64,000 nucleotides of DNA from a virus (taxonomy: Duplodnaviria > Caudoviricetes), in the IMG/VR virus record IMGVR_UViG_3300031867_004305, positions 64,001-128,000 of that record; one strand, given 5' to 3'. Below, one piece after another: positions 373 through 14,404 of the stretch; positions within the stretch are counted from its first letter, which is position 1; each line of letters begins with the position of its first letter. The notes below the pieces were generated by a model, which searched no databases, was not told where the DNA came from, and saw only the letters and a program-made list of their open reading frames with translations. The position numbers were made by a program, and so were the translations under genes.

Positions 373-660
373 ATGGGGTCCCCCGTATATTATACCACAT
401 CAATGTTAACTGCGTATTATCCTCATATTAAAAGTATATGAAGTTTTTTGTTAAGAATAGGTTAAGAAATGATCCGGCCCGCGAGTTAGTTTAAACTAAC
501 TAATCAACTGGTGGTTGCACAACCTGGAGTAGAATCAACCTGGAGTAGCAAATTCTACCATAGGTTGAATCTCACAACTTTACATGGATTTAATCAAAAA
601 ATGCTTACCAGTTAACATTGATCTGTTATAATGTATACAGTTGAAAGAGAGGTGCTTGAA

Positions 661-1128
661 ATGAAGATGACCCGCGAAATTAACCTGACTTACACCTACG
701 ACGCCACGCGTAAGGGAGCCAAGTACAGTATCAACGGAGGCGAAAGCTGGCTCAATGGTGGCGAGTTCGCGGAAGCTGTCGCCAAGGCACTCCACGGGCT
801 GGATCCCCGGAAGGACGCTAACACCCGCTTCGACGAAGGCTCCGACGTGCCCGAGTTCCACGCGAGCGTCAAGAGCTCCAAGGCGAGCCTGACCAACATG
901 AAGCTGGCTGACAGCTTCGAGGCAAGCCTGACTGCCTACTTCGAGCAGGTGGCAAGCTCCGAGTTCTGGTACGTGACTACCACCGACGAGCTGGCTACCA
1001 TCTACAAGATGAACGCCACGAAGTTCGAGCGGTTCCTGCGGAAGTTCGCTAAGCTCAACGAGCGTGGGGTCATCCGGATCGCGGCCACCAGCTCCAAGAT
1101 GCTGGCATGGTTGGACGCCAACGCCTAA
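661..1128 (+). CDS. Hypothetical protein (GC3-rich, possibly PD-(D/E)xK-like)
   Basis: ORF with GAGAGGTG RBS, TGnTATAAT upstream, hairpin across stop; SD...SVK motif only weakly suggestive. Confidence 0.75.
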   Translation: MKMTREINLTYTYDATRKGAKYSINGGESWLNGGEFAEAVAKALHGLDPRKDANTRFDEGSDVPEFHASVKSSKASLTNMKLADSFEASLTAYFEQVASSEFWYVTTTDELATIYKMNATKFERFLRKFAKLNERGVIRIAATSSKMLAWLDANA

Positions 1129-1174
1129 CGGCGAGCGTCCAACCACCTGGCTGGGAAATTAACAAAACCTTAAC

Positions 1175-1203
1175 TTGACAAGCTACGCCAGCTGTGATAT
1201 AAT
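1175..1203 (+). promoter_or_regulatory. Sigma-A promoter TTGACA-N17-TATAAT with extended TG (representative of ~35-40 in the array)
   Basis: Consensus match; similar at 1432, 1668, 2159, 2402, 2761, 3163, 3433, 3841, 4389, 4596, 6648, 6740, 6914, 7457, 8274, 8637, 8855, 9490, 9685, 10247, 10349, 10449, 11053, 11191, 11370, 11915, 12238, 12468, 12952 and on the minus strand near 5770, 5875, 6540, 13912. Confidence 0.9.
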
Positions 1204-1228
1204 GAGTACAACGAAAGGCAAGGAGGAA

Positions 1229-1375
1229 ATGAGAATGAAGATGTGGCTGGTTGACTACCGCGGCACCGACGGTGCCACCTACACCCGCAGGATGTCCTGC
1301 GAGGTCCTGGAGCTCCTGGAGGAGCTTGGGCCCCAATACGGGGTTGAGGTCTTGGGAGCTATTGAGCTTCCTTGA
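1229..1375 (+). CDS. Small hypothetical protein
   Basis: AAGGAGG RBS then ATG; own promoter. Confidence 0.75.
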   Translation: MRMKMWLVDYRGTDGATYTRRMSCEVLELLEELGPQYGVEVLGAIELP

Positions 1376-1489
1376 CCTCAAGGTATAAAACGAAAGCAAT
1401 TAACCAAATACAAATTTCACTAAAACTTAACTTGACAACTGAATAAATCCATGATATAATAAGTCCATCAAAGGAAAGGAGAAAACAAA

Positions 1490-1615
1490 ATGTTTGAGAT
1501 TTACAAGATCAGCACTGACAGGATTATCCTGTCTGGTCTCTCCCTGCGTGAGGCGCAGGCTCTCCGCCTGACTTGGGCGGATCGGGCGGACTTGATTGTC
1601 CGCCCCATGGCCTAA
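1490..1615 (+). CDS. 41-aa hypothetical protein (not in ORF track)
   Basis: Promoter 1432, AAAGGAG RBS, MFEIYKISTDRIILSG...RPMA*. Confidence 0.7.
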   Translation: MFEIYKISTDRIILSGLSLREAQALRLTWADRADLIVRPMA

Positions 1616-1728
1616 CGGAGAGCATAGGCTCTCCGCTGGCCGGCCCGTTTATTAACAAACTCTTAACTTGACAATTCTCTTTTTAAGTATTATAATATAT
1701 ACAGAAAGTAAGGAAAGAGGTAATCAAA

Positions 1729-2100
1729 ATGTTGTTCGGACGTAAAAAGAGGATGCTTAAGCGTGAACGCGAAATGTATTGGGAGTGTTCTGGTGAATGG
1801 TACTTTCGCGTGGAATACCATGAGGATTTCGCTCCCACGCCTTCTTACATGTACTTTGAAAGTTTGCGAGACGCAGAATATTGGGCAAAGACTGATCGCC
1901 GTGCTTCTTTCATTCTGTGTGTAACTGACAGACAGGGCAACAGGATTATAACTGACTGGACTGGTTATACTGGTGCTGGTACTGTTAATATGTGGACTAA
2001 TATAATGGGGCGTCAAGTTCTTGACTTGCGAAAAGACCATAATGAGTTGTGGGTATCCAACAACAGTCCTCGTGCCAAAGAAGTAAAACAGGGATTGTAA
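1729..2100 (+). CDS. Hypothetical protein
   Basis: Promoter, GAGGT RBS, hairpin across stop. Confidence 0.8.
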   Translation: MLFGRKKRMLKREREMYWECSGEWYFRVEYHEDFAPTPSYMYFESLRDAEYWAKTDRRASFILCVTDRQGNRIITDWTGYTGAGTVNMWTNIMGRQVLDLRKDHNELWVSNNSPRAKEVKQGL

Positions 2101-2212
2101 AATCCCTGTTAATTTACTGGCCGGCCCGCAACTTAACATACTCTTAACACAAAACCTATTGACTTTCCTGGCTCAATGGTGTATACTAGTATCAGAAAGT
2201 GAGGGAAAGAAA

Positions 2213-2389
2213 ATGAAGTTTTTGATGATTCCTTATGTGTTAGTTGCTTGCCTGTTTGGTTTCTTTGGTATTCTCCATGCGAATGATGTTGATGAAAATG
2301 ACTACTTCAAAGTTAATTGGCGTATGATTGTTTTCCTTATTATGATGATGTTGTCACCCATTCCAGCTAAGATCTTTGGTTTGCTTTAA
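2213..2389 (+). CDS. Small two-TM membrane protein
   Basis: Two hydrophobic stretches; similar C-end (P..AK..GL) to 8692-8847. Confidence 0.75.
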   Translation: MKFLMIPYVLVACLFGFFGILHANDVDENDYFKVNWRMIVFLIMMMLSPIPAKIFGLL

Positions 2390-2461
2390 CAAAAACTTAA
2401 CTTGACAACCACCAACCAATCTGCTATAATAAATACAGAAAGAGCGAAGGGAGTAATTCAA

Positions 2462-2713
2462 ATGAAGTTCTACATGGTCATGTGTCACAGAGGTCATTGC
2501 GGAGTGGGTCACAGCACTGAAATCAAGTTCGCAATCGCGGCGAACAATCTGCTCGAAGCGTGTGACAGGGCAAAGCGGATGCCGAGCGTGAAGCATACGC
2601 GAATGGCAATCTACGGCAAGGAAATCACCGAGGAAGAATATAGAGAGTATCGCTCCATTAGTGCTTACGAACGCTTCAATCAGAGCCAGCACAAATCTCA
2701 ACGCAGACGTTAA
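2462..2713 (+). CDS. Hypothetical protein (His/Cys motif CHRGHCG)
   Basis: Promoter 2402, GGGAG RBS, hairpin across stop. Confidence 0.8.
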   Translation: MKFYMVMCHRGHCGVGHSTEIKFAIAANNLLEACDRAKRMPSVKHTRMAIYGKEITEEEYREYRSISAYERFNQSQHKSQRRR

Positions 2714-2836
2714 GTCTGCGTTAACTTTCTGGCCGGGCATCAACTTAACATAGAATTAACTTGACTTCTTACAAAATCTATGCTATACTATATACAACAA
2801 GTGAAGGAAACACTTTAAAACCAGGAAGGTAAGAAA

Positions 2837-3100
2837 ATGAAGAAGATTATTACTATTGCTTTGATTATCACTCTGTGCTTGACTCTCACCGCGTGCCAAA
2901 TTGGCAATCGCAAAATCGGTTTCGACACTACGCAAACTTTCCGTTGGGCTATTGTTCAATTGGGCAACGGTGAACTGATTGAAGGTTCTGTAGATTCTTG
3001 GCGAGACTTTGACAACTCTGACACTATTCAAGTTACTATTAATGGCATTACTTACTTAACTCACTATAGTAATGTCATCCTAACGACCGAGAAGCCTTAA
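2837..3100 (+). CDS. Putative lipoprotein
   Basis: MKK + hydrophobic stretch + LTAC lipobox. Confidence 0.8.
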   Translation: MKKIITIALIITLCLTLTACQIGNRKIGFDTTQTFRWAIVQLGNGELIEGSVDSWRDFDNSDTIQVTINGITYLTHYSNVILTTEKP

Positions 3101-3197
3101 TAGCTTCTCGGTTATATTTATGTTAAATTCGCAGCCGGCCCGTGACTTAACAAACAATTAACTTGACTTCGCATCAAAAATATGCTATTATATATAT

Positions 3198-3363
3198 GTC
3201 GAAAGGAAAGAGGGAGTGATTCCATTGGGTTAGAGTAAGGGGCAACAGACCACTTGGCGGTGGAGAACTGACCTCACGATTACATGAAAACCGTTCCCCA
3301 TTAACCTTGGGCAAGTTAATGATGTTTGAAGCCTACCGCGAGAGACTGATCAACTCTCGCGGT
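3198..3363 (+). ncRNA. Promoter-driven transcript lacking an intact ORF (ncRNA or frameshifted micro-gene)
   Basis: Promoter 3163-3191; terminal hairpin ACCGCGAGAG/CTCTCGCGGT; RBS followed by TTG-GGT-TAG. Confidence 0.4.
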
Positions 3364-3496
3364 TTGTTATTTTAATGTTAATTTTCTGGCCGGCCAGAAA
3401 TGTTAATTCTATGTTAACTATCCTAAAAACACTTGACATTTTATTTTACTTATGATATAATAATTACAGAAAACAAACGAGAGGAGACATCCTAAA

Positions 3497-3646
3497 ATGA
3501 CAAAGCACAATTTCATTTCTACATGGGAAGATCTGAGCGATCAGGAACAAGTTTACATGTGGTGGGAATATAACGCGGCGAACCCTAATGAGGAAATTTC
3601 ATTTTCTGAGTTCGATGAAATGATGGCGGGATTCACTTTCGAGTGA
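3497..3646 (+). CDS. 49-aa acidic hypothetical protein (not in ORF track)
   Basis: Promoter 3433, GAGGAG RBS, MTKHNFISTWED...FTFE*, hairpin across stop. Confidence 0.75.
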   Translation: MTKHNFISTWEDLSDQEQVYMWWEYNAANPNEEISFSEFDEMMAGFTFE

Positions 3647-3900
3647 ATCCCATTTCATTTTAATTTTTAATTTAATGTTAAGGTACTGGTCGGCCAGCGA
3701 GTTAGTCATAACTAACCCACCTCTTTTTTATTTATTATACCATTCCAATTTCATTTTCGCAAGCACAATAATGTTAATTTCATTTTAAATTTTCACCCGG
3801 CCCGAAATGTTAAATCCAGGTTAAATCATCCTTTAACCTCTTGACTTTTGCCGTCGCCTGCTGTATAATATATACAGAAAGAGGAAAGGAAGTAAACAAA

Positions 3901-4341
3901 ATGAAGCAGACGATCTGGTTTGACATGGACGGCACTATCGCGAACCTCTACGGCGTGGAAAATTGGCTCCCGATGCTGATTGACAGCAATCCCGCTCCCT
4001 ACAAGCTGGCGACTCCGCTGGTCAACATGAACAAGTTGGCGCGGACGCTGAACAAGCTCCAGCGAGCTGGCTACAAGCTCGGTATCATCAGCTGGCTGAG
4101 CAAGTCCAGCACTCCCGAATATGACAAAGCTGTGACCGCCGCGAAGCTATGGTGGCTCCGCAAGCACCTTAACTCGGTAAAGTGGGATGCGGTTAACATC
4201 GTCGCCTATGGTCGCAACAAATGGGACGTGTGCGGTGAAGGAATCCTGTTTGATGACGAAAAACCGAACCGTGACAATTGGGGCGGTGAAGCCTTCCACC
4301 CTGACGAAATGATGAAAGTTCTGTCGAGCCTGACCGCTTGA
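3901..4341 (+). CDS. HAD-superfamily phosphatase (5'-nucleotidase/deoxyribonucleotidase-like)
   Basis: FDMDGT motif I and ILFDD motif IV. Confidence 0.8.
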   Translation: MKQTIWFDMDGTIANLYGVENWLPMLIDSNPAPYKLATPLVNMNKLARTLNKLQRAGYKLGIISWLSKSSTPEYDKAVTAAKLWWLRKHLNSVKWDAVNIVAYGRNKWDVCGEGILFDDEKPNRDNWGGEAFHPDEMMKVLSSLTA

Positions 4342-4441
4342 CAGAACTTTAACATTCGGCCCAGCCCGCAATTTAACACATAATTAACTTGACTTCATAC
4401 ATAATTTTTGCTATACTATATACAGAAAGAGGGAATGAAAG

Positions 4442-4594
4442 ATGAATGAACTTGATAACATTCGTGTGTGGATTATGCGTCAACCTGCTTCTCCCGCAAT
4501 TCGCACAATGCGACTTCACCTATTCGATCTCTATCGTTATGGCGAAGAATACGAAAAGATTTACCAAATGGTAGAAGAACTAACAAATAATTAA
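4442..4594 (+). CDS. 50-aa hypothetical protein (not in ORF track)
   Basis: Promoter 4389, GAGGG RBS; stop lies in the TTAAC box of the next cassette. Confidence 0.65.
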   Translation: MNELDNIRVWIMRQPASPAIRTMRLHLFDLYRYGEEYEKIYQMVEELTNN

Positions 4595-4672
4595 CTTGAC
4601 ATCCTCTCCAAACTCTGCTATAATAAGTACATAAGAGAAGGAAAACTCTTCCAAACCAGAAAGGGAAACAAC

Positions 4673-4996
4673 ATGACTAAGATGGAGATTCGCACCAACG
4701 TTAAGACCGCCGTTGCCGAGCAGTTTACTGAGTTTTTCGCCAACGCAATCCAGATCGACGACTTCACCTATGTGATCCCGATGGGAACCGCTGAGGATAA
4801 TGGTCGTCCGCTGTTCGCCAAGGTTGAGATTTCCTGTCCCAACTGGTACGCGACCGCCAAGACTGAGCCCTTCAACATCGACGCCAAGGTGGAGGCGTAT
4901 AACGCCGAGCTTGCCGAGCGTGCGGAGAAGGCCGCGGAAAAGGTACGCAAGGCCGCGGAAAAGGAAGCCAAGCGTAAGGAGAAGGAAGGGGAGTAA
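4673..4996 (+). CDS. Hypothetical protein, paralog family A (K/E/A-rich C-terminal helix)
   Basis: AAACCAGAAAGG leader; resembles 5374, 9763, 12547. Confidence 0.85.
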   Translation: MTKMEIRTNVKTAVAEQFTEFFANAIQIDDFTYVIPMGTAEDNGRPLFAKVEISCPNWYATAKTEPFNIDAKVEAYNAELAERAEKAAEKVRKAAEKEAKRKEKEGE

Positions 4997-5058
4997 CCCC
5001 TTCCTTCTTTTGTTATATCTGTGTTAAAAATCGGGCCGGGCTCCCGCTTAACATTTTC

Positions 5059-5232
5059 TTAATGAAAGAATGCGGGAAAGAAAATCAAAGCACCAAGAAT
5101 AATAATAGCAGTAGCTATATCAATAGTGATATTACGAGTATTAGTGTACATTTTTACAATGTCTTTCCACGTCAGACGATAGAACCACATCCGCACTTTG
5201 TAACCAGTAGTATTTCGCACATTTCGTTTCAT
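5059..5232 (-). CDS. Small membrane protein (inverted cassette)
   Basis: GAGGT RBS on minus strand, C-terminal TM helix. Confidence 0.65.
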   Translation of the reverse strand: MKRNVRNTTGYKVRMWFYRLTWKDIVKMYTNTRNITIDIATAIIILGALIFFPAFFH

Positions 5233-5373
5233 ATTGCTTACCTCACTTTCTATAAATAGTATAGCATATTTTATCCTTAAAAGCAATGACTTAAAGTTTT
5301 TTATATTATGACAAAATTATGCCAATCACCCGGCCCGGTTAGTCATAACTAACTGCCAATCAAAAAAGGAGGC

Positions 5374-5697
5374 TTACGCCTCCTCCTTCTTTGCCTTAGC
5401 CTTGGCTACCTTGGTAGCCTTTTCGGCATCCTTGATAGCCTTGGCATCAGCCTTGATCTTCTTCTCAGCTTCCCACTCTTCCGCGACCTCATAGGGGTCG
5501 AACGCCTTAGACACCTTGGTGTCCTTGTACGCCTTGGACTTGACGGTGACTTCCGTCCAAACTTCCTGACCGTCAACAGTCTGGAGGATGGCGAAAGACG
5601 CATCCGCGAACTTGACAGCCTCGTTCTCCATCAGGGCAGGCATGATAGCTTCGATGGTCATCTGACGAGCGGTGGACTTGATCTCATTAGCGTTCAT
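5374..5697 (-). CDS. Hypothetical protein, paralog family A (inverted cassette)
   Basis: AAACCAGAAAGG leader and promoter on minus strand, K/A-rich tail. Confidence 0.85.
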   Translation of the reverse strand: MNANEIKSTARQMTIEAIMPALMENEAVKFADASFAILQTVDGQEVWTEVTVKSKAYKDTKVSKAFDPYEVAEEWEAEKKIKADAKAIKDAEKATKVAKAKAKKEEA

Positions 5698-5790
5698 ATT
5701 ATTCCCTTTCTGGTTTTTGAGCCTTTTCCTTGGCTTCTGTAATTATTATAGCAGATTCAGCGACGCTTGTCAAGTTAATTCTTTATTAAC

Positions 5791-5845
5791 TTTGGCTCTG
5801 TCCCCAGTGCCCAACTCACGCCGTCCTTACCTCTGCCCTTGGAAC
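5791..5845 (-). ncRNA. Candidate small RNA
   Basis: Minus-strand promoter TTGACT(5880)-N17-TATAAT with no ORF before the next promoter at ~5770. Confidence 0.4.
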
Positions 5846-5948
5846 AATTATATTATAGCAGAATTTCCGCCAGGAGTCAAGCACTTTACAAAAACTTAAC
5901 AATCGCGGGCCGGCCAGAGAGTTAACATAGAAATAACAAAGAAACCGC

Positions 5949-6485
5949 TTACGCGGTTTCTTCATCTTCACATTCTTCAATGTAAGCATAATCTACAATC
6001 ACAGGTTGATGATGTCTAATGCCCCAATTCCAATCATGAAAATCAGTTAAACCAATACTTCTAATCCAACTCAATTCATCATAAGAGAGCATTTGTTCAA
6101 ATGTATATTTGTGACAATTAGGGCCTATTGCCTTGATACGCGGCATAATAGAAAAGATATAACCGCGATAGGTTATAAGCGTAGTTTCCGCGAACAGATA
6201 TTCATAACCAGCATCGCAAGCCATTTTATAAACCGCCGCTTCACGTTCACAGCCACCAATGTCCGCAACACATTCCGCATCATAATCCCACTTAATGACA
6301 TAATCAGAAGTAAGAAGGGCAATACGTGCGGAACCAGCTTCTGAAGAAACACGCCGCGAAGGATGATCGCAAATATAGCGACCTACTGCCTGTTTTACAT
6401 CCCATTCGGAAAACAGGTTATTTTCGATATAGGGAAAAATAGACTTCAAAAACTGGAAAGCACGAGTACGATAATCGGATTTCAT
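5949..6485 (-). CDS. Minimal protein-kinase-like protein (inverted cassette)
   Basis: GSAR..DYVIK, DFHDWN, IVDYA motifs; similar to 28578-29366. Confidence 0.65.
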   Translation of the reverse strand: MKSDYRTRAFQFLKSIFPYIENNLFSEWDVKQAVGRYICDHPSRRVSSEAGSARIALLTSDYVIKWDYDAECVADIGGCEREAAVYKMACDAGYEYLFAETTLITYRGYIFSIMPRIKAIGPNCHKYTFEQMLSYDELSWIRSIGLTDFHDWNWGIRHHQPVIVDYAYIEECEDEETA

Positions 6486-6683
6486 TTTATTTGCTCCCTT
6501 CGCTTTTCTATATATAGTATATACCAGTATGCTTATAATGTCAAGTTAATTTTATGTTAAGTTTCGGGCCGGGTGATTGTTAATTTCATTTTAAGTTATT
6601 ACCCGGCCCGCCAATGTTAAATCCAGGTTAACTTTCCCATTAAGCACTTGACATTTCATTCAGATTCTGCTATACTATATACA

Positions 6684-6723
6684 GTTGAGGGCGAGGGAAA
6701 CACTTCCCAAAACCCGAGACAAC
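6684..6723 (+). ncRNA. Candidate small RNA 1 of module 1
   Basis: Promoter 6648-6676; GTTG...CAAC ends, internal GGGAA/TTCCC hairpin; no ORF. Confidence 0.45.
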
Positions 6724-6773
6724 TTCACGAAATCTTAACTTGACAAGGTTGGGAAATCGTGATATAATGAGGA

Positions 6774-6903
6774 TGTTGAGAGGACAAGAGCCAACTTGAA
6801 TAAAAATGGCCACAAACAGACTGCCAAGTAGAGAACGGGATTTATGAGCGTACACCTTTGGTTAAGGCACTGTTATTGTCTCCCGAAATAAAAACTCTCA
6901 ACA
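6774..6903 (+). ncRNA. Candidate small RNA 2 of module 1
   Basis: Promoter 6740-6768; 9-bp closing stem TGTTGAGAG/CTCTCAACA; no credible ORF. Confidence 0.55.
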
Positions 6904-6993
6904 AACTCTTAACTTGACATTATACCAAATCTGTGGTATAATAAATACATCAAAGGGAAGGAAAACCCACCAAACCAGAAAGGACAAAACACT

Positions 6994-7329
6994 ATGAAGA
7001 AGAACACCATCACCGCTCTGTACAACTACTTCGTGAACTCCGACGACACCATCGACCTGTCCGCTGTGGTTGAGGACATTCGTGCTGAGTATGAGCGTAC
7101 CACCGCGAAGTCTCAGGAGAAGGCTAACGCCTACGATACCGCGAAGCCCATCGTGTTCGGCGTCATGACTGAGCCGATGACGGTCAAGGAGATTTTCGCC
7201 AAGTGCGAGAACGACCTGCCCGATGGCTTCACCTCGCACAAGATCCAATATGCTTTGCTGAACTACTGGTGCGACGAGGTTGCCAAGATTGACAACGGCA
7301 AGGCTCCCTTCACCTACATGGTGAAGTGA
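6994..7329 (+). CDS. Winged-helix-like protein, paralog family B
   Basis: MTVKEIF...DGFTSHKIQYAL...KAPFTY; similar to 10528 and 11451. Confidence 0.8.
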   Translation: MKKNTITALYNYFVNSDDTIDLSAVVEDIRAEYERTTAKSQEKANAYDTAKPIVFGVMTEPMTVKEIFAKCENDLPDGFTSHKIQYALLNYWCDEVAKIDNGKAPFTYMVK

Positions 7330-7333
7330 GACT

Positions 7334-7360
7334 AAACCGCCCTTCGGGGCGGTTTTCTTT
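7334..7360 (+). terminator. Intrinsic terminator
   Basis: AAACCGCCC-TTCG-GGGCGGTTTT. Confidence 0.85.
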
Positions 7361-7517
7361 TACATTTCATTCTGTTAAGTTTTCGTTAATTTTCGGGCCG
7401 GGCGTGGAGTTAACAATCATTTAACTTGCCCGGCCGCGAGTTAACACAATCTTAACTTGACTTTTATTCCTGGCGAATGTATAATAGATACAGAAATTAG
7501 GAAAGGAACTAAACAAA

Positions 7518-8228
7518 ATGATTCTTAACATCACTGACCGTTACATTCTGATTCTGGACGTTGAAACCGCAAACGACACCATCGACGCTATTGTCTATGA
7601 CATTGGCTTCATGTTGGTTGACCTTTACACAAACGCAATCTGTGAGCAGGGTTCTTTCGTAATTCGTGACACTTTCGTTTATGAACGCGAACTCGTAAAG
7701 GTTGCCTACTACGGCGATAAGATTCCTGAATACGTCGCAGACATTCAGCAGGGAAAGCGTCAAATGATTGACTTTTTGACGGCAAGGCGTCATATTCTTA
7801 ACTTGATGGAAAAGTATGATTGCCATACGGTTGGGGCGTACAATTGTAACTTTGACCGCAACGCTCTTAACACAACTCTCCGTTTCTTAACGAAATCTAA
7901 ATATCGCTACTTCTTCCCTTACTCTACTAATTTTGTGTGTATTTGGAATATGGCTTGCGATACCATCTGTCAGACAAGCGAATATAAAACGTTTGCCGAG
8001 ACTAACCGCCATTATTCCAATCATGGCAAAAATTATCGTGCCACCGCAGAGGTTGTTTACTCATTCTTAACAAATAACCCTGACTTCCACGAGGAACACA
8101 AAGGTTACGATGATGTTAAGATTGAAAAGGAAATTATGGAAAAGTGTCTGGAATATGACAAGAACTTTAAGGGAATAAAAAGAAACTGTTGGCAAAAAGT
8201 CAAACGGGGAGCACTCGCTCTCCGTTAA
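7518..8228 (+). CDS. DEDDh 3'-5' exonuclease
   Basis: LDVET (ExoI), AYNCNFD (ExoII), HKGYDD (ExoIII). Confidence 0.85.
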   Translation: MILNITDRYILILDVETANDTIDAIVYDIGFMLVDLYTNAICEQGSFVIRDTFVYERELVKVAYYGDKIPEYVADIQQGKRQMIDFLTARRHILNLMEKYDCHTVGAYNCNFDRNALNTTLRFLTKSKYRYFFPYSTNFVCIWNMACDTICQTSEYKTFAETNRHYSNHGKNYRATAEVVYSFLTNNPDFHEEHKGYDDVKIEKEIMEKCLEYDKNFKGIKRNCWQKVKRGALALR

Positions 8229-8332
8229 TTTTATGTTAAGTTTCGGGCCGGCCGACCTTTACACAGAATTAACTTGACTTCTCTCTTGAATTTTGATATA
8301 CTATATATAGAAAAAGAAAGGAGATTTCAACT

Positions 8333-8587
8333 ATGACTGTTAAGGAATTGATTAAGGAACTCCAGAAAATGCCCGAAGATGCTGTTGTACTCGGCGATAT
8401 GTATCTTAATCAGTATTGCGTTATTGATACAGTTGAATATGATGACGCGACGAACACCATCTCGTTCTATGGCGAGGATACTTTTGAAGAACCTGACATT
8501 CCCGATGATGTAGACGAGACTAACTACGACCCCTACTGCGGTTGTGATATGTTTGAAATCTGCGGATCAATTGATGAGGAATGGTAA
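8333..8587 (+). CDS. Acidic hypothetical protein
   Basis: Promoter, AAAGGAG RBS; common phage MTVKELIKEL N-terminus. Confidence 0.8.
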   Translation: MTVKELIKELQKMPEDAVVLGDMYLNQYCVIDTVEYDDATNTISFYGEDTFEEPDIPDDVDETNYDPYCGCDMFEICGSIDEEW

Positions 8588-8691
8588 TTAACCATTCCTT
8601 AACATTGGCCGGCCCACCATTTAACACAATCTTAACTTGACTTCCGCGTGCGAATCGTGTATAATTATATCAGAAAGTGAGGAATGCCATT

Positions 8692-8847
8692 ATGTTAGCG
8701 TTTAGCATTATTATTTTCATTTGGGGACTGTCGGGAATTTGTGGGTTGATAAATTGTAAAAAAGAAAGGATAATTTGGGAACTCTTAATTTTTGGAATTA
8801 TGATTCCTTTTCTACCTGTTTTTGCTAAACTATGTGGTTTAATATAA
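8692..8847 (+). CDS. 51-aa two-TM membrane protein (not in ORF track)
   Basis: Promoter 8637, GAGG RBS, hydrophobic; resembles 2213-2389. Confidence 0.65.
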   Translation: MLAFSIIIFIWGLSGICGLINCKKERIIWELLIFGIMIPFLPVFAKLCGLI

Positions 8848-8908
8848 ACTTAACTTGACTTTTATTTCCCTATCTGTTATAATAATTCCAGAAAGTGAGG
8901 AAACGCAA

Positions 8909-9049
8909 ATGGAAAAGAAAAATCAGAACCGCGAAACTTGGGTCGGCTATCGCCCCTCCGTCATTCCCGCGAAGAAGAAGAACAAGAAACGCGACCGCAA
9001 AGAAGGCAAGCAGATTTGCCGTAATGCTATGAAAGGAGAAAAGGATTAA
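8909..9049 (+). CDS. Small basic protein
   Basis: Promoter 8855, GAGG RBS. Confidence 0.7.
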   Translation: MEKKNQNRETWVGYRPSVIPAKKKNKKRDRKEGKQICRNAMKGEKD

Positions 9050-9258
9050 TGAGCTTTTGGAAAAAACAAGAATATTGGTATATTATTGATGAAAAATTTT
9101 TCGGATATAACCCTTATTGGTGGGGCGGTTGTGCGGTTGATAATAATTTAAATGGAAATAATAAAGGACTATATAGAACAATATGTCGCGTAGCAAAAAA
9201 TAAAAAACGTAAATCTCGCATAATAGAAAGGAAAATAAAAAATGCGAACCAATCTTGA
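9049..9258 (+). CDS. Hypothetical protein
   Basis: Coupled TAATG start, AAGGA RBS. Confidence 0.6.
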   Translation: MSFWKKQEYWYIIDEKFFGYNPYWWGGCAVDNNLNGNNKGLYRTICRVAKNKKRKSRIIERKIKNANQS

Positions 9259-9445
9259 AATCGCCGCCGAACTTATCGCCGCGGACGTCCGTAATCTCAA
9301 TAATATTGAGGAATATTGTGGCTATCCCGATTTCAATCGGCTTGATGGTATTGAACGCGACAAACTTTCTAAAATGGTTGATGAACTATTAATCATTATC
9401 TATCGGCGGCAAAACCGCCAGCGAATGGAATGGGAGAATAGTTAG
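9242..9445 (+). CDS. Hypothetical protein
   Basis: GAAAGG RBS, hairpin across stop. Confidence 0.7.
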   Translation: MRTNLEIAAELIAADVRNLNNIEEYCGYPDFNRLDGIERDKLSKMVDELLIIIYRRQNRQRMEWENS

Positions 9446-9547
9446 TTCTCCCTAACTCCGCCCGGCCCGAGATTTAACAAACTTTTTACTTGACTTTTCC
9501 TGGATTTTGTGTTATAATAATTATAGAAAGTGAAAGGAGAAAGTCAA

Positions 9548-9688
9548 ATGATTATTAACATCACTATTGACACCGATAACAATTTTGTTTGGGCAGTAGA
9601 TGAAAATCAGGAAACCAGCATTGACTATTCCGCGTGTGATCTTTCCGCAATATCCGTAGAAGAAATTATTAACGATTTCTTAACTTGA
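9548..9688 (+). CDS. 46-aa acidic protein (not in ORF track)
   Basis: Promoter 9490, AAAGGAG RBS; TGA stop lies inside the next -35 box. Confidence 0.65.
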   Translation: MIINITIDTDNNFVWAVDENQETSIDYSACDLSAISVEEIINDFLT

Positions 9689-9762
9689 CTTCTCCCGTCG
9701 AATCTGCTATACTATATCCAGAAGGTGAAGGAAAACACCACAAACCAGAAAGGATAACGCCC

Positions 9763-10167
9763 ATGAGTAAGGCTTCTCTTGAAACTGAAATCCGCAACAA
9801 CGTTCTCCAGACCATCATTGACGCCGTGAATCCCATCAGCGACATTCTCCCGATTAGTGCCAGCGAACTCGCTCTCCCCATCGTTGACAGCGAGGGCAAC
9901 GAAAAGTTTGCCGTTATCAAAGTCAGCATTCCTCGCGGTGAGCGTGACGGCAACGGCGGTTACATCCCCTTTGACGGTTACGCCGCCGCCGAGGATTGGA
10001 AACTGGTACTTGCGGATCGTGCCGATAAGGCGGCGAAACGCAAGGAAAAGGCGGAACGTGCCGAAAAGGAAAAGGAAAGGAAACGACAGGCACGCAAGGT
10101 TGTAAAAGACCTTAACACGGTGGGCTTTAAGGCTCTCGTGTCCCAGCCGATTAATGAGGGTGAGTAA
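9763..10167 (+). CDS. Hypothetical protein, paralog family A
   Basis: AAACCAGAAAGG leader, K/E-rich helix, ends EGE*. Confidence 0.85.
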   Translation: MSKASLETEIRNNVLQTIIDAVNPISDILPISASELALPIVDSEGNEKFAVIKVSIPRGERDGNGGYIPFDGYAAAEDWKLVLADRADKAAKRKEKAERAEKEKERKRQARKVVKDLNTVGFKALVSQPINEGE

Positions 10168-10280
10168 TCACCCTCTTTGTTATTTTTATGTTAATTTTCA
10201 GGCCGGCCCGCTTTGTTAAGATTGTGTTAAATACTCCTAGAACTACTTGACTTTGAGTGGAGATTCTGCTATACTAATAT

Positions 10281-10338
10281 TGTTGAGAGGGCAAGAAAAC
10301 CTCAAGACAAAAGGGTGAAAGTCCCACCCCTCTCAACA
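10281..10338 (+). ncRNA. Candidate small RNA 1 of module 2
   Basis: Promoter 10247-10275; 11-bp closing stem TGTTGAGAGGG/CCCTCTCAACA, same ends as the 6774 RNA. Confidence 0.55.
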
Positions 10339-10383
10339 AAATCTTAACTTGACAAACTCCAAGATTTCTGCTATAATGATTAC

Positions 10384-10431
10384 ATCAGAGAGGGAAACGA
10401 GAGGTTCAAAGTTCGAGAGGTTCCGAGAGAA
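10384..10431 (+). ncRNA. Candidate small RNA 2 of module 2
   Basis: Promoter 10349-10377; GAGAGG(TTC) repeats; no ORF. Confidence 0.4.
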
Positions 10432-10527
10432 CTTAACAGAGACTTAACTTGACAAACTACTCCCAATCTGATATAATAAAGACAAGAGAGGGGAAGGAAA
10501 ACCCCACAAACCAGAAAGGGAATCATT

Positions 10528-10923
10528 ATGAAGAACACCATGACTTATGCCGTCGCTCTGTCCACCGCTATCGAGACCATGAAGGACACCAATCCCGAAG
10601 TTGCGGAGCGTCTGACCGCTCTGCGTGCGACCCTTGCGAAGCGTTCCCAGCGTAGCGAGGATTCCAAGGCTAAGGCTTCTGCGAAGCGGAAACAGCAGAA
10701 CGCCGAGAAGCGTGCCGAGATGTGTGCGGAGATCGTGCCGATTCTGCGTGAGGTCATCACCACGGACATGACCGCGAAGGAAATCTTCGCCGTTGCTCAG
10801 GATCGTCTGCCGAAGGACTTCACCGCGAACAAGGTTCAGGCGATTCTCCTGCGTGAGATGAAGGACGAGGTTATCAAGACCGAGACCAAGGGCAAGGCGA
10901 ACACCTATCGCCTTGCGGAGTGA
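10528..10923 (+). CDS. Winged-helix-like protein, paralog family B
   Basis: MTAKEIF...DFTANKVQAIL...KANTYRL; AAACCAGAAAGG leader. Confidence 0.8.
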   Translation: MKNTMTYAVALSTAIETMKDTNPEVAERLTALRATLAKRSQRSEDSKAKASAKRKQQNAEKRAEMCAEIVPILREVITTDMTAKEIFAVAQDRLPKDFTANKVQAILLREMKDEVIKTETKGKANTYRLAE

Positions 10924-10924
10924 T

Positions 10925-10953
10925 AGAAGGGGCTAACGCCCCTTCTTTTTTTT
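10925..10953 (+). terminator. Intrinsic terminator
   Basis: AGAAGGGGC-TAAC-GCCCCTTCT + T run. Confidence 0.85.
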
Positions 10954-11087
10954 ATGGCGAGTTAGCCAGGACTAACTCGGCCGGGTAATGTAAAATGTTT
11001 GTTAAGTAATCGCCCGGCCCGCGATTTAACATAATCTTTACACAGAAAAGTATTGACAACCAGCGGATTTTCTGCTATACTATTATT

Positions 11088-11174
11088 GTCGGTGGGGGAA
11101 ACGGGAGCGCGCAGGCGCAAGCGCGTTGTGGTAATTAGAAACATGCAACAGTTGATCGGCCACCTAAAGCCGAC
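11088..11174 (+). ncRNA. Candidate small RNA 1 of module 3
   Basis: Promoter 11053-11081; GTCGGT/GCCGAC closing stem and internal GC-rich hairpin; no ORF. Confidence 0.5.
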
Positions 11175-11230
11175 TTAACAAAATCTTAACTTGACATTAC
11201 AGCCTAAAAGTGCTATAATGAATACATCAA

Positions 11231-11349
11231 GGGGAGCGAACGTGGCATCAGGGGAGCCACCACGGTAAGTCGCAAGACGATTGCGTAGGCCACTTGCAAA
11301 AGAGGGTCGTCCCATGAGGGATGGAGTTCAATTCTCCCGCTCTCCACCA
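11231..11349 (+). ncRNA. tRNA-like RNA with Ala-type acceptor (G3:U70, A73, CCA) and no anticodon loop
   Basis: GGGGAGCG/CGCTCTCC-A-CCA acceptor, GGAG-TTCAATT-CTCC T-arm, four internal hairpins; promoter 11191-11219. Confidence 0.7.
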
Positions 11350-11450
11350 GATTATAACAGAATCTTAACTTGACAAATAGTTGAGAATCTGATATAATAA
11401 ATACATCAAGAGGACAAGGAAAAGTCCTAAAAACCAGAAAGGGATTTACT

Positions 11451-11840
11451 ATGAAGAATACCATCACTCGCGTTGACGCTCTGAACTACGCTATCAATGC
11501 CATCGACCAGTGTACCGAAACCGATGTTGAGGTCGTCGCTATCCTCGAGAAGATTCGCGATCAGATCGCGAAGCCTCGCAAGACCAGCGACACCGCCAAG
11601 GCGAACGCCAAGGCGAAGCGTGCGAACGCTCGTGCGGAACTGATGAAGGATGTTCTGCCCATCCTGCGGGATGCTCTGACCGAGGGCGGTACCGCCAAGG
11701 AAATCTTTGAGCGGTGTGCCGATATGCTCCCCGAAGATTTCACCAGTGCCAAGGTACAGTACATTCTGCTTCACGAACTGGCGGACGAGGTCGTTAAGAC
11801 CGAAGCCAAGGGTAAGGCGAATGTCTACACCCTGCGGTAA
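11451..11840 (+). CDS. Winged-helix-like protein, paralog family B
   Basis: TAKEIF...DFTSAKVQYIL...KANVYTL; AAACCAGAAAGG leader. Confidence 0.8.
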   Translation: MKNTITRVDALNYAINAIDQCTETDVEVVAILEKIRDQIAKPRKTSDTAKANAKAKRANARAELMKDVLPILRDALTEGGTAKEIFERCADMLPEDFTSAKVQYILLHELADEVVKTEAKGKANVYTLR

Positions 11841-11841
11841 A

Positions 11842-11865
11842 AACAGAGGGCGAAAGCCCTCTGTT
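11842..11865 (+). terminator. Intrinsic terminator
   Basis: AACAGAGGGC-GAAA-GCCCTCTGTT. Confidence 0.8.
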
Positions 11866-11974
11866 AATTTTTTGTTAAAAATCGGGCCGGGCCGTTAGTT
11901 AACCAAATCTTTACTTGACTTCTATCAAAATTGGGAGTATAATAATTATAGAAAAAAGAAAGGGGATACCGATT

Positions 11975-12184
11975 ATGGCTATCAACATTCGTCACACTTA
12001 CAGCACTCACGTTGAGATTACTTTCTATGCTGAAGATGGCATTACCCTGCGTTGTCGTGATTGCGGACAGATGGACGACATCGCCGAGCAGGTTTGTGAA
12101 GTTCTGGTTAAGCACGACTTTGCTTATGCCGATATCTGCTCCGCCGAAACTGGCGAGGTTCTCATGGTGATTGAGCGGACTTAA
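11975..12184 (+). CDS. Hypothetical protein
   Basis: Promoter 11915, AAAGGGG RBS, hairpin across stop. Confidence 0.75.
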   Translation: MAINIRHTYSTHVEITFYAEDGITLRCRDCGQMDDIAEQVCEVLVKHDFAYADICSAETGEVLMVIERT

Positions 12185-12291
12185 CGTCCGCTTAACATCT
12201 TCGCCCGGCCCACCCATGTTAAGTTTCTGTAAACCTATTGACTTTTGATCGCGATTTATGGTATTATATATATGTCAGGAGGGAACAGGAA

Positions 12292-12471
12292 ATGTTAGAT
12301 AAAGCCATTAAATCAGGCAAAGAACATCGTAAACCTTATTACGATACACGACGTTTTGATTGTACTTGTCGCAATCATGGTTCTTGTGATTGGTGTAAAG
12401 CAAATCGACTTTACCAGATTACCAGAGAAAAAGACAAAGCAAACAACAAACTTAATGAATACTTTACTTGA
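12292..12471 (+). CDS. Small Cys-containing protein (CxCRNHGxCxxC)
   Basis: AGGAGG RBS; stop lies inside the next -35 box. Confidence 0.75.
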   Translation: MLDKAIKSGKEHRKPYYDTRRFDCTCRNHGSCDWCKANRLYQITREKDKANNKLNEYFT

Positions 12472-12546
12472 CAAATCCCAAATCCTGTGCTATAATATAA
12501 TCAAGAAGTGAAGGAAAACACTTACAAACCAGAAAGGGTCTACACT

Positions 12547-12882
12547 ATGAAGATTTCCAAGGCTATCGTCGATTCCAACATCCGCACCGCTATCTTCAAT
12601 GCTCTGAACGTTGCCAACATCGAAGGATTCCACAAGATCAACGACCGCCAGTATGGTTGTATCGTTGAGGATGTCAACGGCGAACGTCGCTACGCTCGCG
12701 TGGGTGTCATCGTTGCCGAGGTCCGCGAGGACTGTACCGCCGATGAACTGATGGCGTCTGAGATCGCGGACTACAACGCGAAGCAGGAAGCCAAGGCGAA
12801 GCGTGCCGAGGAACGCAAGGCGAAAGCCGAGCGTGACAAGGCGAAGCGTGAAGCCACCAAGAAGGAAAAGGAAGGGGAGTAA
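12547..12882 (+). CDS. Hypothetical protein, paralog family A
   Basis: AAACCAGAAAGG leader, ends KEKEGE*. Confidence 0.85.
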   Translation: MKISKAIVDSNIRTAIFNALNVANIEGFHKINDRQYGCIVEDVNGERRYARVGVIVAEVREDCTADELMASEIADYNAKQEAKAKRAEERKAKAERDKAKREATKKEKEGE

Positions 12883-13012
12883 TCCCCTTCCTCCCGAAGG
12901 TTAACTTCATGTTAATTTTCGGGCCGGGCCAGAACTTAATCAAATCTTAACTTGACATTTCATTCAAAGCGGAGTATACTATATACAGAAAGAAACGAAA
13001 GGGGACTTCACA

Positions 13013-13246
13013 GTGGGCGTTTACATCGTGACTACCAATTACTTCATGAATGGCTTCTTCGGCATTTACACCACTGTCAAGCGTGCGCGTATTGCGCTTG
13101 AACAGTACTTTGCGGATGACGATGATGTCGTTGCGTTTGAGGACGTAGACAATTACAGCTATACCTTCACCACTCGTAACGGCGCACAGTTCAGCGCGGA
13201 AATTATGTGGGCCGATATTGACGAAGAATTCAAGGAGGATGAATAA
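13013..13246 (+). CDS. Hypothetical protein
   Basis: Promoter 12952, AAAGGGG RBS, GTG start. Confidence 0.75.
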   Translation: MGVYIVTTNYFMNGFFGIYTTVKRARIALEQYFADDDDVVAFEDVDNYSYTFTTRNGAQFSAEIMWADIDEEFKEDE

Positions 13247-13249
13247 TTT

Positions 13250-13441
13250 ATGAAGTGTCCTAATTGCGGAAATGAAATCTACGCGATCGATACCCTTGAT
13301 AGTGATTGTTGCGGTGACTCTTATTTTGATCGCGTTGAAGGCACTTGCCCCAATTGCGGCAAATCATGGCGATGGATTGAGGTTTTCACCTTTGACCATT
13401 GTGAAAACATAGAAGAAATAAAAGAGGACGACCATCTTTGA
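13250..13441 (+). CDS. Zinc-ribbon protein
   Basis: Two CPNC motifs; AAGGAGG RBS. Confidence 0.75.
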   Translation: MKCPNCGNEIYAIDTLDSDCCGDSYFDRVEGTCPNCGKSWRWIEVFTFDHCENIEEIKEDDHL

Positions 13442-13504
13442 TGGTCGTTAACTTTATGTTAAAAAAACGGGCCGGGCAACATCTTAACAAAAAATTAAAG
13501 TGGG

Positions 13505-13858
13505 CTATTCGCCCACTTTAACCCATTCCAATTTTATCCAATCATATTCATACAAACCTACTTCATCATGCGGTAATTCATAACCAAAATAAGAATCAAT
13601 CAATTCCATAGCTTCATGCGAAATAATTTTCTTTACACGAATTTTTTCGCATCTGTCGAAAGCATATTTAATAGCATCTAATCCTTGCTCTACTCCGTTT
13701 AAAAAAATCCAGATATACCCGCCATTTTTCCCAAAGAAATCATAAGCATTAAAAAACTCTTCCAACAGATCAAAAGCCTTGCCCTCATATTCTTCGCATT
13801 CTTCAAAGTTATCAAACTCAGTGTCATCATAAGCAACATAAGTAACAACTTCACGCAT
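13505..13858 (-). CDS. Acidic hypothetical protein (inverted cassette)
   Basis: Minus-strand promoter ~13912 and AAAGGAG RBS; flanked by spacer cores. Confidence 0.8.
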   Translation of the reverse strand: MREVVTYVAYDDTEFDNFEECEEYEGKAFDLLEEFFNAYDFFGKNGGYIWIFLNGVEQGLDAIKYAFDRCEKIRVKKIISHEAMELIDSYFGYELPHDEVGLYEYDWIKLEWVKVGE

Positions 13859-14038
13859 ACTCAGTATCTCCTTTCCTTTTCTACATATATAATATCATAA
13901 ACCCAACCCAAAGTCAAGTTAAATCCAGGTTAATAAACCGCCCGCCGCGAACTTTACATAAACTTTACACAAACTCTGTTGCTTCTTAACAGTCGAATAT
14001 GGTATTATATACATACAAAAGGAAAGGGGATTTCAAAA

Positions 14039-14266
14039 ATGTTGAAGTTCATTATCATGCTCGCGGTTTCCATTTGGCTCACTTCCTCTCTGTTTATGCT
14101 GTTCTTTTGGGCGAATGCTTTCATCACTACCTTGCGGAAAGATGGTAAAATTTTCCTGATGCCGTTTGGTCAATTCCTCTATTTCCACTTCTGCCCTATT
14201 GTACATACTGTCAAGTGCTTTAAAATCATGCGACAAATGGCCGAATTGACGAAACGCGGAGTGTAA
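14039..14266 (+). CDS. Small membrane protein
   Basis: AAAGGGG RBS; hydrophobic; hairpin across stop. Confidence 0.7.
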   Translation: MLKFIIMLAVSIWLTSSLFMLFFWANAFITTLRKDGKIFLMPFGQFLYFHFCPIVHTVKCFKIMRQMAELTKRGV

Positions 14267-14404
14267 ACTCCGCGTTAAGTTTTCGCCCGGGCAGTAATGT
14301 AAATTCTATGTTAAGGAATTACCCGGCCCGAAATTTAACAAAAAGTCAACATAAACCCTCGCACAGATTTAACATTACTATGGTATAATATCGGGGGAGG
14401 CACC

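Follow-up and report, generated by a model that had tools for sequence, protein, structure and literature searches.

The window analysed here is a 64,000-nucleotide stretch of tailed-phage DNA (Caudoviricetes; IMG/VR record IMGVR_UViG_3300031867_004305) comprising bases 64001–128000 of a single virus contig of 181,042 base pairs (bp), estimated to be complete, with a G+C content of 36.6%. In its early region the genes B1, B2, and B3, which encode small proteins of one family (family B), are each preceded by two extra consensus promoters that drive short units devoid of open reading frames (ORFs). Comparison of sequences from related phages shows that most of these units are under selection at the RNA level. 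With a probability of roughly 0.55, we interpret them as stacks of stable small-RNA genes that share the terminator of the downstream B gene, are freed by processing, and possibly serve as counter-defence decoys.

Almost every small gene between about 3 kb before the window start and window position 13,000 has a consensus sigma-70 promoter of its own, and 50 promoter-like sites are found in the region compared with 17.3 ± 3.5 in shuffled sequences. The B modules with their ORF-less units sit inside this early cassette array. Taking the seventh base after the −10 hexamer as the predicted transcription start, the start codon lies 20–45 nucleotides (nt) past that site at the other early-region promoters, the terminator-bearing unit at 3163 excepted. 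A scan of all strong promoters finds seven ORF-less units abutting a downstream promoter, exclusively before B1, B2, B3, and one gene of a second family, A. The original prediction had placed two such promoters and ORF-less stretches ahead of each B gene, one unit upstream of a family A gene, and the sequence TTCTGCTATACTA in the first promoter of every module; all are found (Table 1). None of the six upstream promoters is followed by an ORF with a ribosome-binding site, and the ORFs of at least 30 amino acids (aa) after them start within a −35 hexamer or lack a Shine-Dalgarno (SD) sequence. Small ORFs within the units, which likewise begin in −35 hexamers or have no ribosome-binding site, were dismissed as genes.

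Conservation and covariation of the ORF-less units

The comparison set consists of 22 IMG/VR loci and further contigs from metagenome phages, identified where necessary by L numbers. In related loci, too, one to three additional consensus promoters with their ORF-less units stand ahead of B genes. Of 54 B genes, 49 have such units upstream, as do 16 of 57 family A genes and 16 of 323 further genes driven by promoters (redundant counts, as some loci overlap), the last 16 cases being mostly short ORFs under the cut-off or tRNAs. Non-redundant B modules number 38 (14 single, 20 double, and 4 triple); there are 14 non-redundant family A modules, about seven of which are truly ORF-less. The units form ∼50 groups with mutually unrelated interiors, and their 5′ ends belong to a few classes (GUUGAGAGGG, GUUCCAAGGGG, GUCAAGAGG, GUCGGUG, AUCAGAGAGGGAAAC, and AUCAAGGGG). 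Phages with B2 proteins 83–88% identical to B2 of the window carry entirely different units, and on this sequence evidence the units are swapped as cassettes between related phages, probably via recombination in near-identical promoter sequences. No tandem or dispersed repeats of unit interiors are found; only promoters, spacers, and paralogous genes repeat. Rfam searches at gathering thresholds and at E values up to 5 give no credible family for any unit, the best match, rli48, being a chance match on the opposite strand. Three short Logan contigs with B genes, considered as evidence for transcript ends, contain promoter DNA or adapter and are therefore DNA assemblies, which carry no information on where transcripts end.

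Single-sequence fold z-scores are mixed, ranging from −3.2 (unit 2a) through +1.3 (unit 2b), and the case for structure therefore depends on comparative data rather than on the window by itself. The duplex between the 5′ and 3′ ends of the same unit has a mean energy of −12.1 kcal/mol, compared with −8.8 kcal/mol for cross pairs between units (p = 6e-5), and a closing helix of roughly at least 8 bp begins at +1 or +2 in ∼30 of 46 distinct unit types. In the window, closing stems that the original prediction had described at the expected start sites are found in units 1b, 2a, and 3a. One interior occurs with two different closing helices, GUUCCAAGGGG...CCCCUUGGAA in L009 and L017 and GUUGAGAGGG...CCCUCUCA in L026, and in this trio four closing-helix pairs and one internal-helix pair are doubly changed. 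Orthologous groups contain 15 compensatory, 14 one-sided consistent, and two broken pairs, a count that omits one group mixing non-homologous interiors and that favours consistency because the structures were predicted from the same sequences. The inner pairs of the closing helices are unit-specific and covary. Many of the helix pairs are G-U, which makes the structures specific to the transcribed strand. RNA-level conservation and covariation are shown in this way for most units, but not for unit 2b or the unit linked to family A.

Units that have been retained are 91–98% identical; for the same pairs of phages, identity at third codon positions of the neighbouring B gene is only 65–85%. Orthologues of unit 1a are 91–100% identical in L010, L024, and L021; unit 1b is 94.5% identical to the L021 copy (80% at B1 third codon positions); the unit 2a orthologue in L007 is 96% identical; unit 2b is 93–94% identical in L002 and L005 (74–81% at B2 third positions); and unit 3a is 94.6% identical in L002. 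Identity this high would be due to purifying selection acting on entire units, to their recent lateral exchange, or to both, and in either case the units behave as discrete modules and not as neutral spacer. The original prediction had asked for covariation and for linkage to winged-helix genes in related phages, and both are found for most units. It had also named, as observations that would speak against it, long read-through leaders in place of discrete small transcripts and a lack of structural covariation in homologues. Read-through transcripts are to be expected, as there are no terminators in the modules, yet structural covariation is present.

A loop motif, (Y)AAGCGCGCA, is found on covarying stems in otherwise unrelated units of L013, L086, L002, L010, and L001 and at window 11106–11125, and GCGCGC is ∼24 times as frequent in units as in the genome. 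The loop of this motif, 9 nt long, is identical to the dimerisation-initiation loop of HIV-1, an analogy that suggests loop-loop pairing between RNAs. The idea that the units are sponges for CsrA, based on GGA motifs, was dropped since these motifs lie in stems.

tRNA-like unit 3b and tRNA genes in the same slots

One transcript had been noted in the original prediction as tRNA-like, and unit 3b fits that description. A 5-nt leader (AUCAA) separates its core from the predicted start. The core has an 8-bp acceptor helix, GGGGAGCG/CGCUCUCC, with a G3:U70 pair, and a 4-bp T stem (GGAG/CUCC) with the loop UUCAAUU, which together form a 12-bp acceptor/T-arm stack, and its 3′ end consists of discriminator A followed by CCA (encoded ACCA). 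The core also contains a 5-bp D-like hairpin with GG in the loop, a GNRA hairpin, and two further hairpins. It lacks an anticodon arm, in place of which stand four hairpins. Unit 3b thus has the acceptor/T stack, a T-loop matching UUCRANY, and the discriminator and CCA of a canonical tRNA, and it lacks the canonical cloverleaf, in which an anticodon stem of 5 bp carries a 7-nt loop. ARAGORN, run with its default thresholds in the tRNA, transfer-messenger RNA (tmRNA), and intron modes, detects no gene in the window and reports nothing for unit 3b unless the thresholds are lowered to 50–70%; nor does the unit match RF00005 at E values up to 5. When the 181-kb genome is scanned strictly on both strands for the combination of a 12-bp acceptor/T stack, T-loop, and NCCA, the only matches are the annotated tRNAs (19 tRNA genes lie on the contig, at 134–157 kb), unit 3b, and one other element. 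The latter is a 135-nt element beside tRNA-Leu, at genome 149587–149721, outside the window.

A pattern search of viral and metagenome contigs reveals three interior versions behind the same ends, of 119 nt (10 variants), 158 nt (five variants), and 61 nt. G3:U70 is invariant across these forms, and stays while acceptor pairs 5–7 change compensatorily between versions (AGC/GCU to CGA/UCG in the 61-nt form). The D-like stem covaries at two positions (UA/CG and GC/AU), and the small hairpin covaries with its GNRA loop kept (GCAA, GUAA, GAAA). At window 11262 an A stands in place of the G of nine relatives, producing an A-C mismatch in the third helix. Two more, different tRNA-like units ending in ACCA occur in relatives, and T-arm-like hairpins are found in six of 50 unit types, compared with 0.13 expected. 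A G3:U70 pair in an acceptor minihelix is enough for alanylation. Because the wobble pair is kept at the alanine identity position and ACCA is encoded, the natural prediction from the sequence is that unit 3b would be alanylated by the host alanyl-tRNA synthetase.

Genuine tRNA genes occupy some of the same slots. tRNA-Lys(UUU), the only canonical tRNA in early regions of related loci, is found, in several different sequence versions, at five loci, four of which have it inside a B module. In L026 and L009 it stands immediately behind a closed-helix unit without an intervening promoter, and therefore RNase P cleavage must define the 3′ end of that unit. Occupancy by tRNA indicates that the slots host RNAs processed from transcripts running on into B.

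Module layout, family A and B proteins, and surrounding sequences

Table 1. Features of the three B modules and of the family A-linked unit. Positions are those of the window; promoter matches are counted against TTGACA-17-TATAAT, and z is the single-sequence fold z-score.
Feature	Position	Strand	Evidence or remark
Module 1 first promoter, TTGACA-17-TATACT with TTCTGCTATACTA	6648..6676	+	11/12 consensus
Unit 1a, 57-nt ORF-less RNA, small hairpin, no closing helix	6683..6739	+	z −2.4
Module 1 second promoter	6740..6768	+	12/12 consensus
Unit 1b, 139 nt, G1-type; 8-bp closing helix from +1, 6775–6782/6895–6902	6775..6913	+	z −1.5
B1 proximal promoter	6914..6942	+	12/12 consensus
B1 leader: hairpin at the 5′ end (AAGGAAAA in the loop) followed by ACCAAACCAGAAAGG ribosome-binding region	6949..6993	+	common to A and B genes; family D14
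B1, family B, 111 aa	6994..7329	+	ORF, paralogy
Intrinsic terminator past B1, first one downstream of promoter 6648	7334..7355	+	
Module 2 first promoter, TTGACT-17-TATACT, with TTCTGCTATACTA	10247..10275	+	10/12 consensus
Unit 2a, 67 nt, G1-type; 10-bp closing helix from +1, 10282–10291/10328–10337	10282..10348	+	z −3.2
Module 2 second promoter	10349..10377	+	12/12 consensus
Unit 2b, 65 nt, weakly structured, with purine-rich GAGAGG repeats and no closing helix	10384..10448	+	z +1.3
B2 proximal promoter	10449..10477	+	12/12 consensus
B2, 131 aa; predicted long helix 23–76 and C-terminal winged helix 67–131	10528..10923	+	structure model
Terminator past B2	10925..10946	+	
Module 3 first promoter, TTGACA-17-TATACT, with TTCTGCTATACTA	11053..11081	+	11/12 consensus
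Unit 3a, 103 nt; 6-bp closing helix from +1, 11088–11093/11169–11174; internal GC-rich hairpin	11088..11190	+	z −0.6
Module 3 second promoter	11191..11219	+	12/12 consensus
Unit 3b whole, 144 nt, tRNA-like acceptor helix	11226..11369	+	z −2.9
Unit 3b core, 119-nt tRNA-like RNA	11231..11349	+	fold, minihelix scan, variant alignment
B3 proximal promoter	11370..11398	+	12/12 consensus
B3, 129 aa	11451..11840	+	ORF, paralogy
Terminator past B3	11842..11865	+	
Extra promoter upstream of family A gene	5852..5880	−	
Family A-linked ORF-less unit (GUUCCAAGGGCAGAGGUAAGGACGG...), SD-like 5′ part conserved in relatives	5774..5845	−	z −0.07
Family A gene, 107 aa: predicted helix, three-stranded sheet, long C-terminal Lys/Ala/Glu helix	5374..5697	−	model

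B1, B2, and B3 are paralogues (33–51% identical), and family B has 1,084 metagenomic homologues. Sequence searches of Pfam, PHROGs, NCBIfam, and PDB assign neither A nor B to a family, and the ESM Atlas returns only viral hypothetical clusters together with weak HARE-HTH and HTH_24 leads. The B model (predicted local distance difference test, pLDDT, 83) begins with a long helix, basic in its middle part, and continues with a C-terminal domain in which residues 67–131 align to PerR, Nur, ArsR-type proteins, Z-alpha, and histone H5 with Z of 8–9 and root mean square deviations of 1.4–2.1 Å over 57–68 residues. The three-helix bundle and beta-hairpin wing of this domain in the predicted structure bear out the winged-helix label given to B in the original prediction. 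The modelled fold is compatible with DNA or RNA binding alike and does not discriminate between the two. No convincing fold match is found for the family A model (pLDDT 92).

The G+C content at third codon positions (GC3) of seven A and B genes (4673–4996, 5374–5697, 6994–7329, 9760–10167, 10528–10923, 11451–11840, and 12547–12882) is 0.60–0.81, and at least 0.70 in six of the seven, in a genome of 36.6% G+C; for the neighbouring early genes it is mostly 0.21–0.59, with one exception at 0.72, a HAD-like gene. The A and B genes also have a common leader, in which a covarying 5′ hairpin with the loop AAGGAAAA is followed by ACAAACCAGAAAGG. Together, the bias in GC3 and the shared leader suggest very high early expression of both families.

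Two TTAAC-type boxes, 11 bp apart, lie immediately upstream of the −35 hexamer of every internal early promoter (NTTAAC-N5-CTTAAC-TTGACA; examples at window 6714–6746, 7431–7463, 10323–10355, and 11165–11197). The first promoter of each B module has no TTAAC boxes and carries TTCTGCTATACTA in their place, and for this reason there may be two classes of early promoter. The heptamer GGGCCGG, part of a GGCCGGCC-like palindrome with GTTAA repeats on its flanks, is present in 21 copies compared with 1.8 expected (window 474–14329); all copies are in intergenic spacers of the early cassette array, as a conserved spacer element between a terminator and the next promoter. The ORF-less transcript from promoter 3163 (∼175 nt, beginning near 3198) has an intrinsic terminator of its own at 3337–3373 and is kept in the related locus L017; it may be a candidate stand-alone small RNA or a gene for an 18-aa peptide. 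A blastn search of the region against 50,697 phage records gives no match, and a baseplate protein query returns short, distant matches only, with no close cultured relative of this phage.

Candidate roles and comparison with known systems

In the explanation that we favour, each RNA gene has its own host-type early promoter and no terminator, and the genes are arranged head to tail ahead of a highly expressed B gene, or sometimes an A gene, the terminator of which would end all of the stacked transcripts. Because the units and B are not separated by a terminator, processing would be required to yield discrete RNAs. They would be cut from read-through transcripts by host enzymes, with RNase P and 3′ tRNA-processing enzymes acting on the tRNA and tRNA-like units and endonucleases cutting the AU-rich linker of the others; unit 3b would then be a substrate for the alanyl-tRNA synthetase of the host. 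The weakest step is the last, in which the RNAs would act in trans early as substitutes or decoys for tRNA-directed or RNA-binding factors of the host, for example defence nucleases that cut tRNA. Such a trans-acting role is suggested by the presence of tRNA-Lys in the slots, by the alanine-type mimic, and by the turnover of the units as cassettes. The decoy role already raised in the original prediction is possible by analogy, with indirect support from tRNA-Lys(UUU) in the same slots of relatives, whereas the antitoxin mimics raised along with it find no support, there being no tandem repeats and no Rfam match. As a side effect, the extra promoters would probably also raise transcription of B.

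A bolder form of this proposal is offered tentatively, namely that a lineage of large uncultured phages keeps, in fixed slots expressed early, a rapidly exchanged library of dozens of scaffolded small RNAs, alanine-accepting anticodon-less tRNA mimics among them, serving as RNA agents of counter-defence or host takeover. Each RNA in such a library would be a terminal helix that displays a variable, structured interior. It is likewise only a tentative suggestion that these RNAs might inhibit, or act as decoys for, nucleases that target tRNA, trans-translation, or further host factors that bind RNA, and an equally speculative one that they might do so jointly with the abundant downstream winged-helix protein. 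If true, the locus would do with RNA what anti-defence islands do with proteins. Phage counter-defence and takeover have been described almost wholly in terms of proteins, the known RNA agents being phage tRNAs, RNA anti-CRISPRs, and orphan antitoxin RNAs. Here, ∼50 distinct structured RNAs have consensus promoters, predictable 5′ ends, and common slots; were they to act in trans, phages would keep exchangeable RNA arsenals, and many compact natural folds would be available to try against tRNA-directed immunity. The alanine-identity minihelix family is open to direct in vitro test.

Several observations weigh against the stacked small-RNA genes. The upstream promoters of the B genes are followed by no terminator-like site before the one after each B gene, and neither known processing signals nor terminators are found after the units that are not tRNA-like. 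Unit 2b (z +1.3) and the A-linked unit (z −0.07) have no significant structure. Recent exchange, rather than purifying selection, could explain the identity of the units. The outer six pairs of the G1 closing helix (GUUGAG.../...CUCAAC) coincide with a TTAAC-type box, the one found 11 bp upstream of the CTTAAC box at every early promoter, and the purine-rich unit starts (GUUGAGAGGG and AUCAGAGAGGG) resemble the initial transcribed sequences of T7 A1 and T5 N25, both strong phage promoters; because of this overlap and these starts, part of the conservation of the unit ends may be a property of the promoters. Finally, the idea of counter-defence is drawn by analogy.

The main rival explanation is that the extra promoters are tandem promoters that give B and A the highest possible transcription, the sequences between them being only cis-acting leaders, with end helices and SD-like purine tracts protecting the long transcripts from 5′-end-dependent decay. 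It gives a direct account of the linkage to B and A genes and of the absence of a terminator between units and B, and the codon bias and shared leader of these genes fit very high expression; a helix at +1 is moreover a known stabiliser design. It may well hold for unit 2b and the A-linked unit, which are unstructured purine-rich leaders. As an account of the units in general, however, it is improbable. A stabiliser needs a local hairpin only, not closure of a 60–170-nt domain, and the interiors are conserved far beyond synonymous sites and covary internally. G3:U70, the T-loop, and ACCA survive three interior replacements, and some slots are occupied by real tRNA-Lys genes. If a tRNA or tRNA-like unit were excised, the B mRNA downstream would be left with a 5′ monophosphate, which speaks against boosting by those promoters, and an extra promoter is present at only one of four A genes in the window. 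Should the units nevertheless be leaders only, they would represent unusually clear selection for whole-domain 5′-3′ closure in tandem-promoter leaders.

The original prediction had proposed a small RNA–protein system with B as the cognate binding protein. Its RNA side is supported, with RNA-level conservation and covariation in most units and with linkage to winged-helix genes kept in dozens of related phage contigs, but B as the partner is not. That B binds the upstream RNAs, for instance at their closing helices, to form an active ribonucleoprotein would be consistent with the conserved position upstream of B (49 of 54), with the basic long helix and winged-helix domain of B, and with the ability of some winged helices to bind RNA or double-stranded helices (ROQ and Z-alpha are among the fold matches). 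We consider it distinctly unlikely all the same, since the identity of a unit does not follow that of B: B2 proteins 83–88% identical are found with different units, and the same unit classes stand ahead of family A genes. Closing-helix sequences vary between classes, the best fold matches of B are ordinary DNA-binding regulators and linker histone, and B has no family assignment and matches no RNA-binding family. The possibility that the units are decaying remnants, such as degenerate tRNA genes or ORF-less cassette leftovers kept between useful promoters, agrees with the tRNA derivation of some units and with the shuffling cassette array in which they lie; it is already disfavoured, and very improbable, given the compensatory changes, the 91–98% identity next to diverged synonymous sites, and the G-U identity pair, which is kept and not fixed to G-C. 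Least probable, to the point of being hardly tenable, is that the units are DNA-level elements, inverted repeats for recombination, a replication origin, or protein binding, with incidental transcription. Outer closing pairs do coincide with TTAAC-type boxes, and some phage origins have tandem promoters with short transcripts, but the many G-U pairs would be C-A mismatches on the other strand, and the helices start precisely at the predicted +1 and in every case have the same orientation as the promoter.

Literature searches turned up no account of this arrangement, nor of the conserved linkage to one protein family, the hypervariable repertoire, or the alanine-identity family. Several known systems resemble it in part. 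ToxI-like RNAs are tandem short RNA repeats beside an endoRNase gene, and the units have neither tandem repeats nor an Rfam match. Their GUUG...CAAC ends are like those of type VI-B CRISPR repeats; mimicry of such repeats was dropped on grounds of size, heterogeneity, and promoter type. The RNA anti-CRISPR Racr is a solitary copy of a host CRISPR repeat (PMC10651486). The units are heterogeneous and 44–190 nt long, whereas one typical CRISPR repeat measures roughly 28–37 nt. Y RNA and YrlA are likewise small RNAs in which pairing between the two ends closes a distal module that is variable or tRNA-like, with several such genes often lying next to one another, and a terminal helix of this kind is seen in ∼30 of 46 distinct unit types. 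In contrast to Y RNA and YrlA, the units have no Rfam match and no recognised conserved Ro-binding helix, and TROVE/Rsr (PF05731) is absent from the 181-kb genome in a search that detected the positive controls. The tRNA-Lys of phage T5 defeats the tRNA-Lys-cleaving PARIS system (PMC11464382). It too is an early-expressed phage RNA gene, and relatives have tRNA-Lys(UUU) in the slots discussed here; the units of the window differ from T5 tRNA-Lys in that they are not functional tRNAs.

The closest known design relative of unit 3b is the tRNA-like domain of tmRNA, which also combines an acceptor helix with G3:U70, a T-arm, and encoded ACCA with replacement of the anticodon arm; G3:U70 and CCA are found in 15 variants of two interior forms and in the 61-nt form. 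The tag-less mitochondrial tmRNAs of jakobids are a further parallel. Unlike tmRNA, the unit 3b family is 61–160 nt long, has no tag reading frame and no pseudoknots, and its D-like arm is base-paired. Candidate tag frames of the tmRNA kind in unit 3b were dismissed, as the variant substitutions follow helices and alter the frames. Neither ARAGORN -m nor RF00023 gives a tmRNA match for unit 3b, and no genes for SmpB, RtcB, or a CCA-adding enzyme were found in the phage genome. Given the absence of the tag frame and pseudoknots, in a phage without SmpB, unit 3b is not considered to be a tmRNA. A full tmRNA (Rfam 101 bits) is present at L028:612-966, on a different phage contig of 161 kb (IMGVR_UViG_3300028591_000099), and its trailer past ACCA, GATTATAAC, is the same as that past unit 3b, which may hint at the origin of unit 3b or may be due to chance.

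At the level of the whole locus, phage T7 has tandem early promoters, A1, A2, and A3, ahead of gene 0.3. As in T7, three strong host-type promoters ∼100–180 bp apart, with ORF-free gaps and purine-rich initial transcribed sequences, precede a small abundant early protein. The present arrangement differs in that the spacers are conserved, covarying, exchangeable RNA modules, tRNA-like RNAs included, and in that it occurs three times over and is linked to a single protein family. The promoter-early stem-loop (PeSL) cassettes of T4-type phages mediate module shuffling by recombination (PMC2839356), and both systems have a hyperplastic early region with repeated, strong promoters of sigma-70-like type as well as conserved flanking elements. 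The stem-loops of PeSL cassettes are terminators that flank ORFs, whereas the units have neither ORF nor terminator and their helix spans the whole transcript unit. The units are thus not themselves PeSL cassettes, in which a promoter and a terminator stem-loop surround an ORF, although the surrounding array fits that design.

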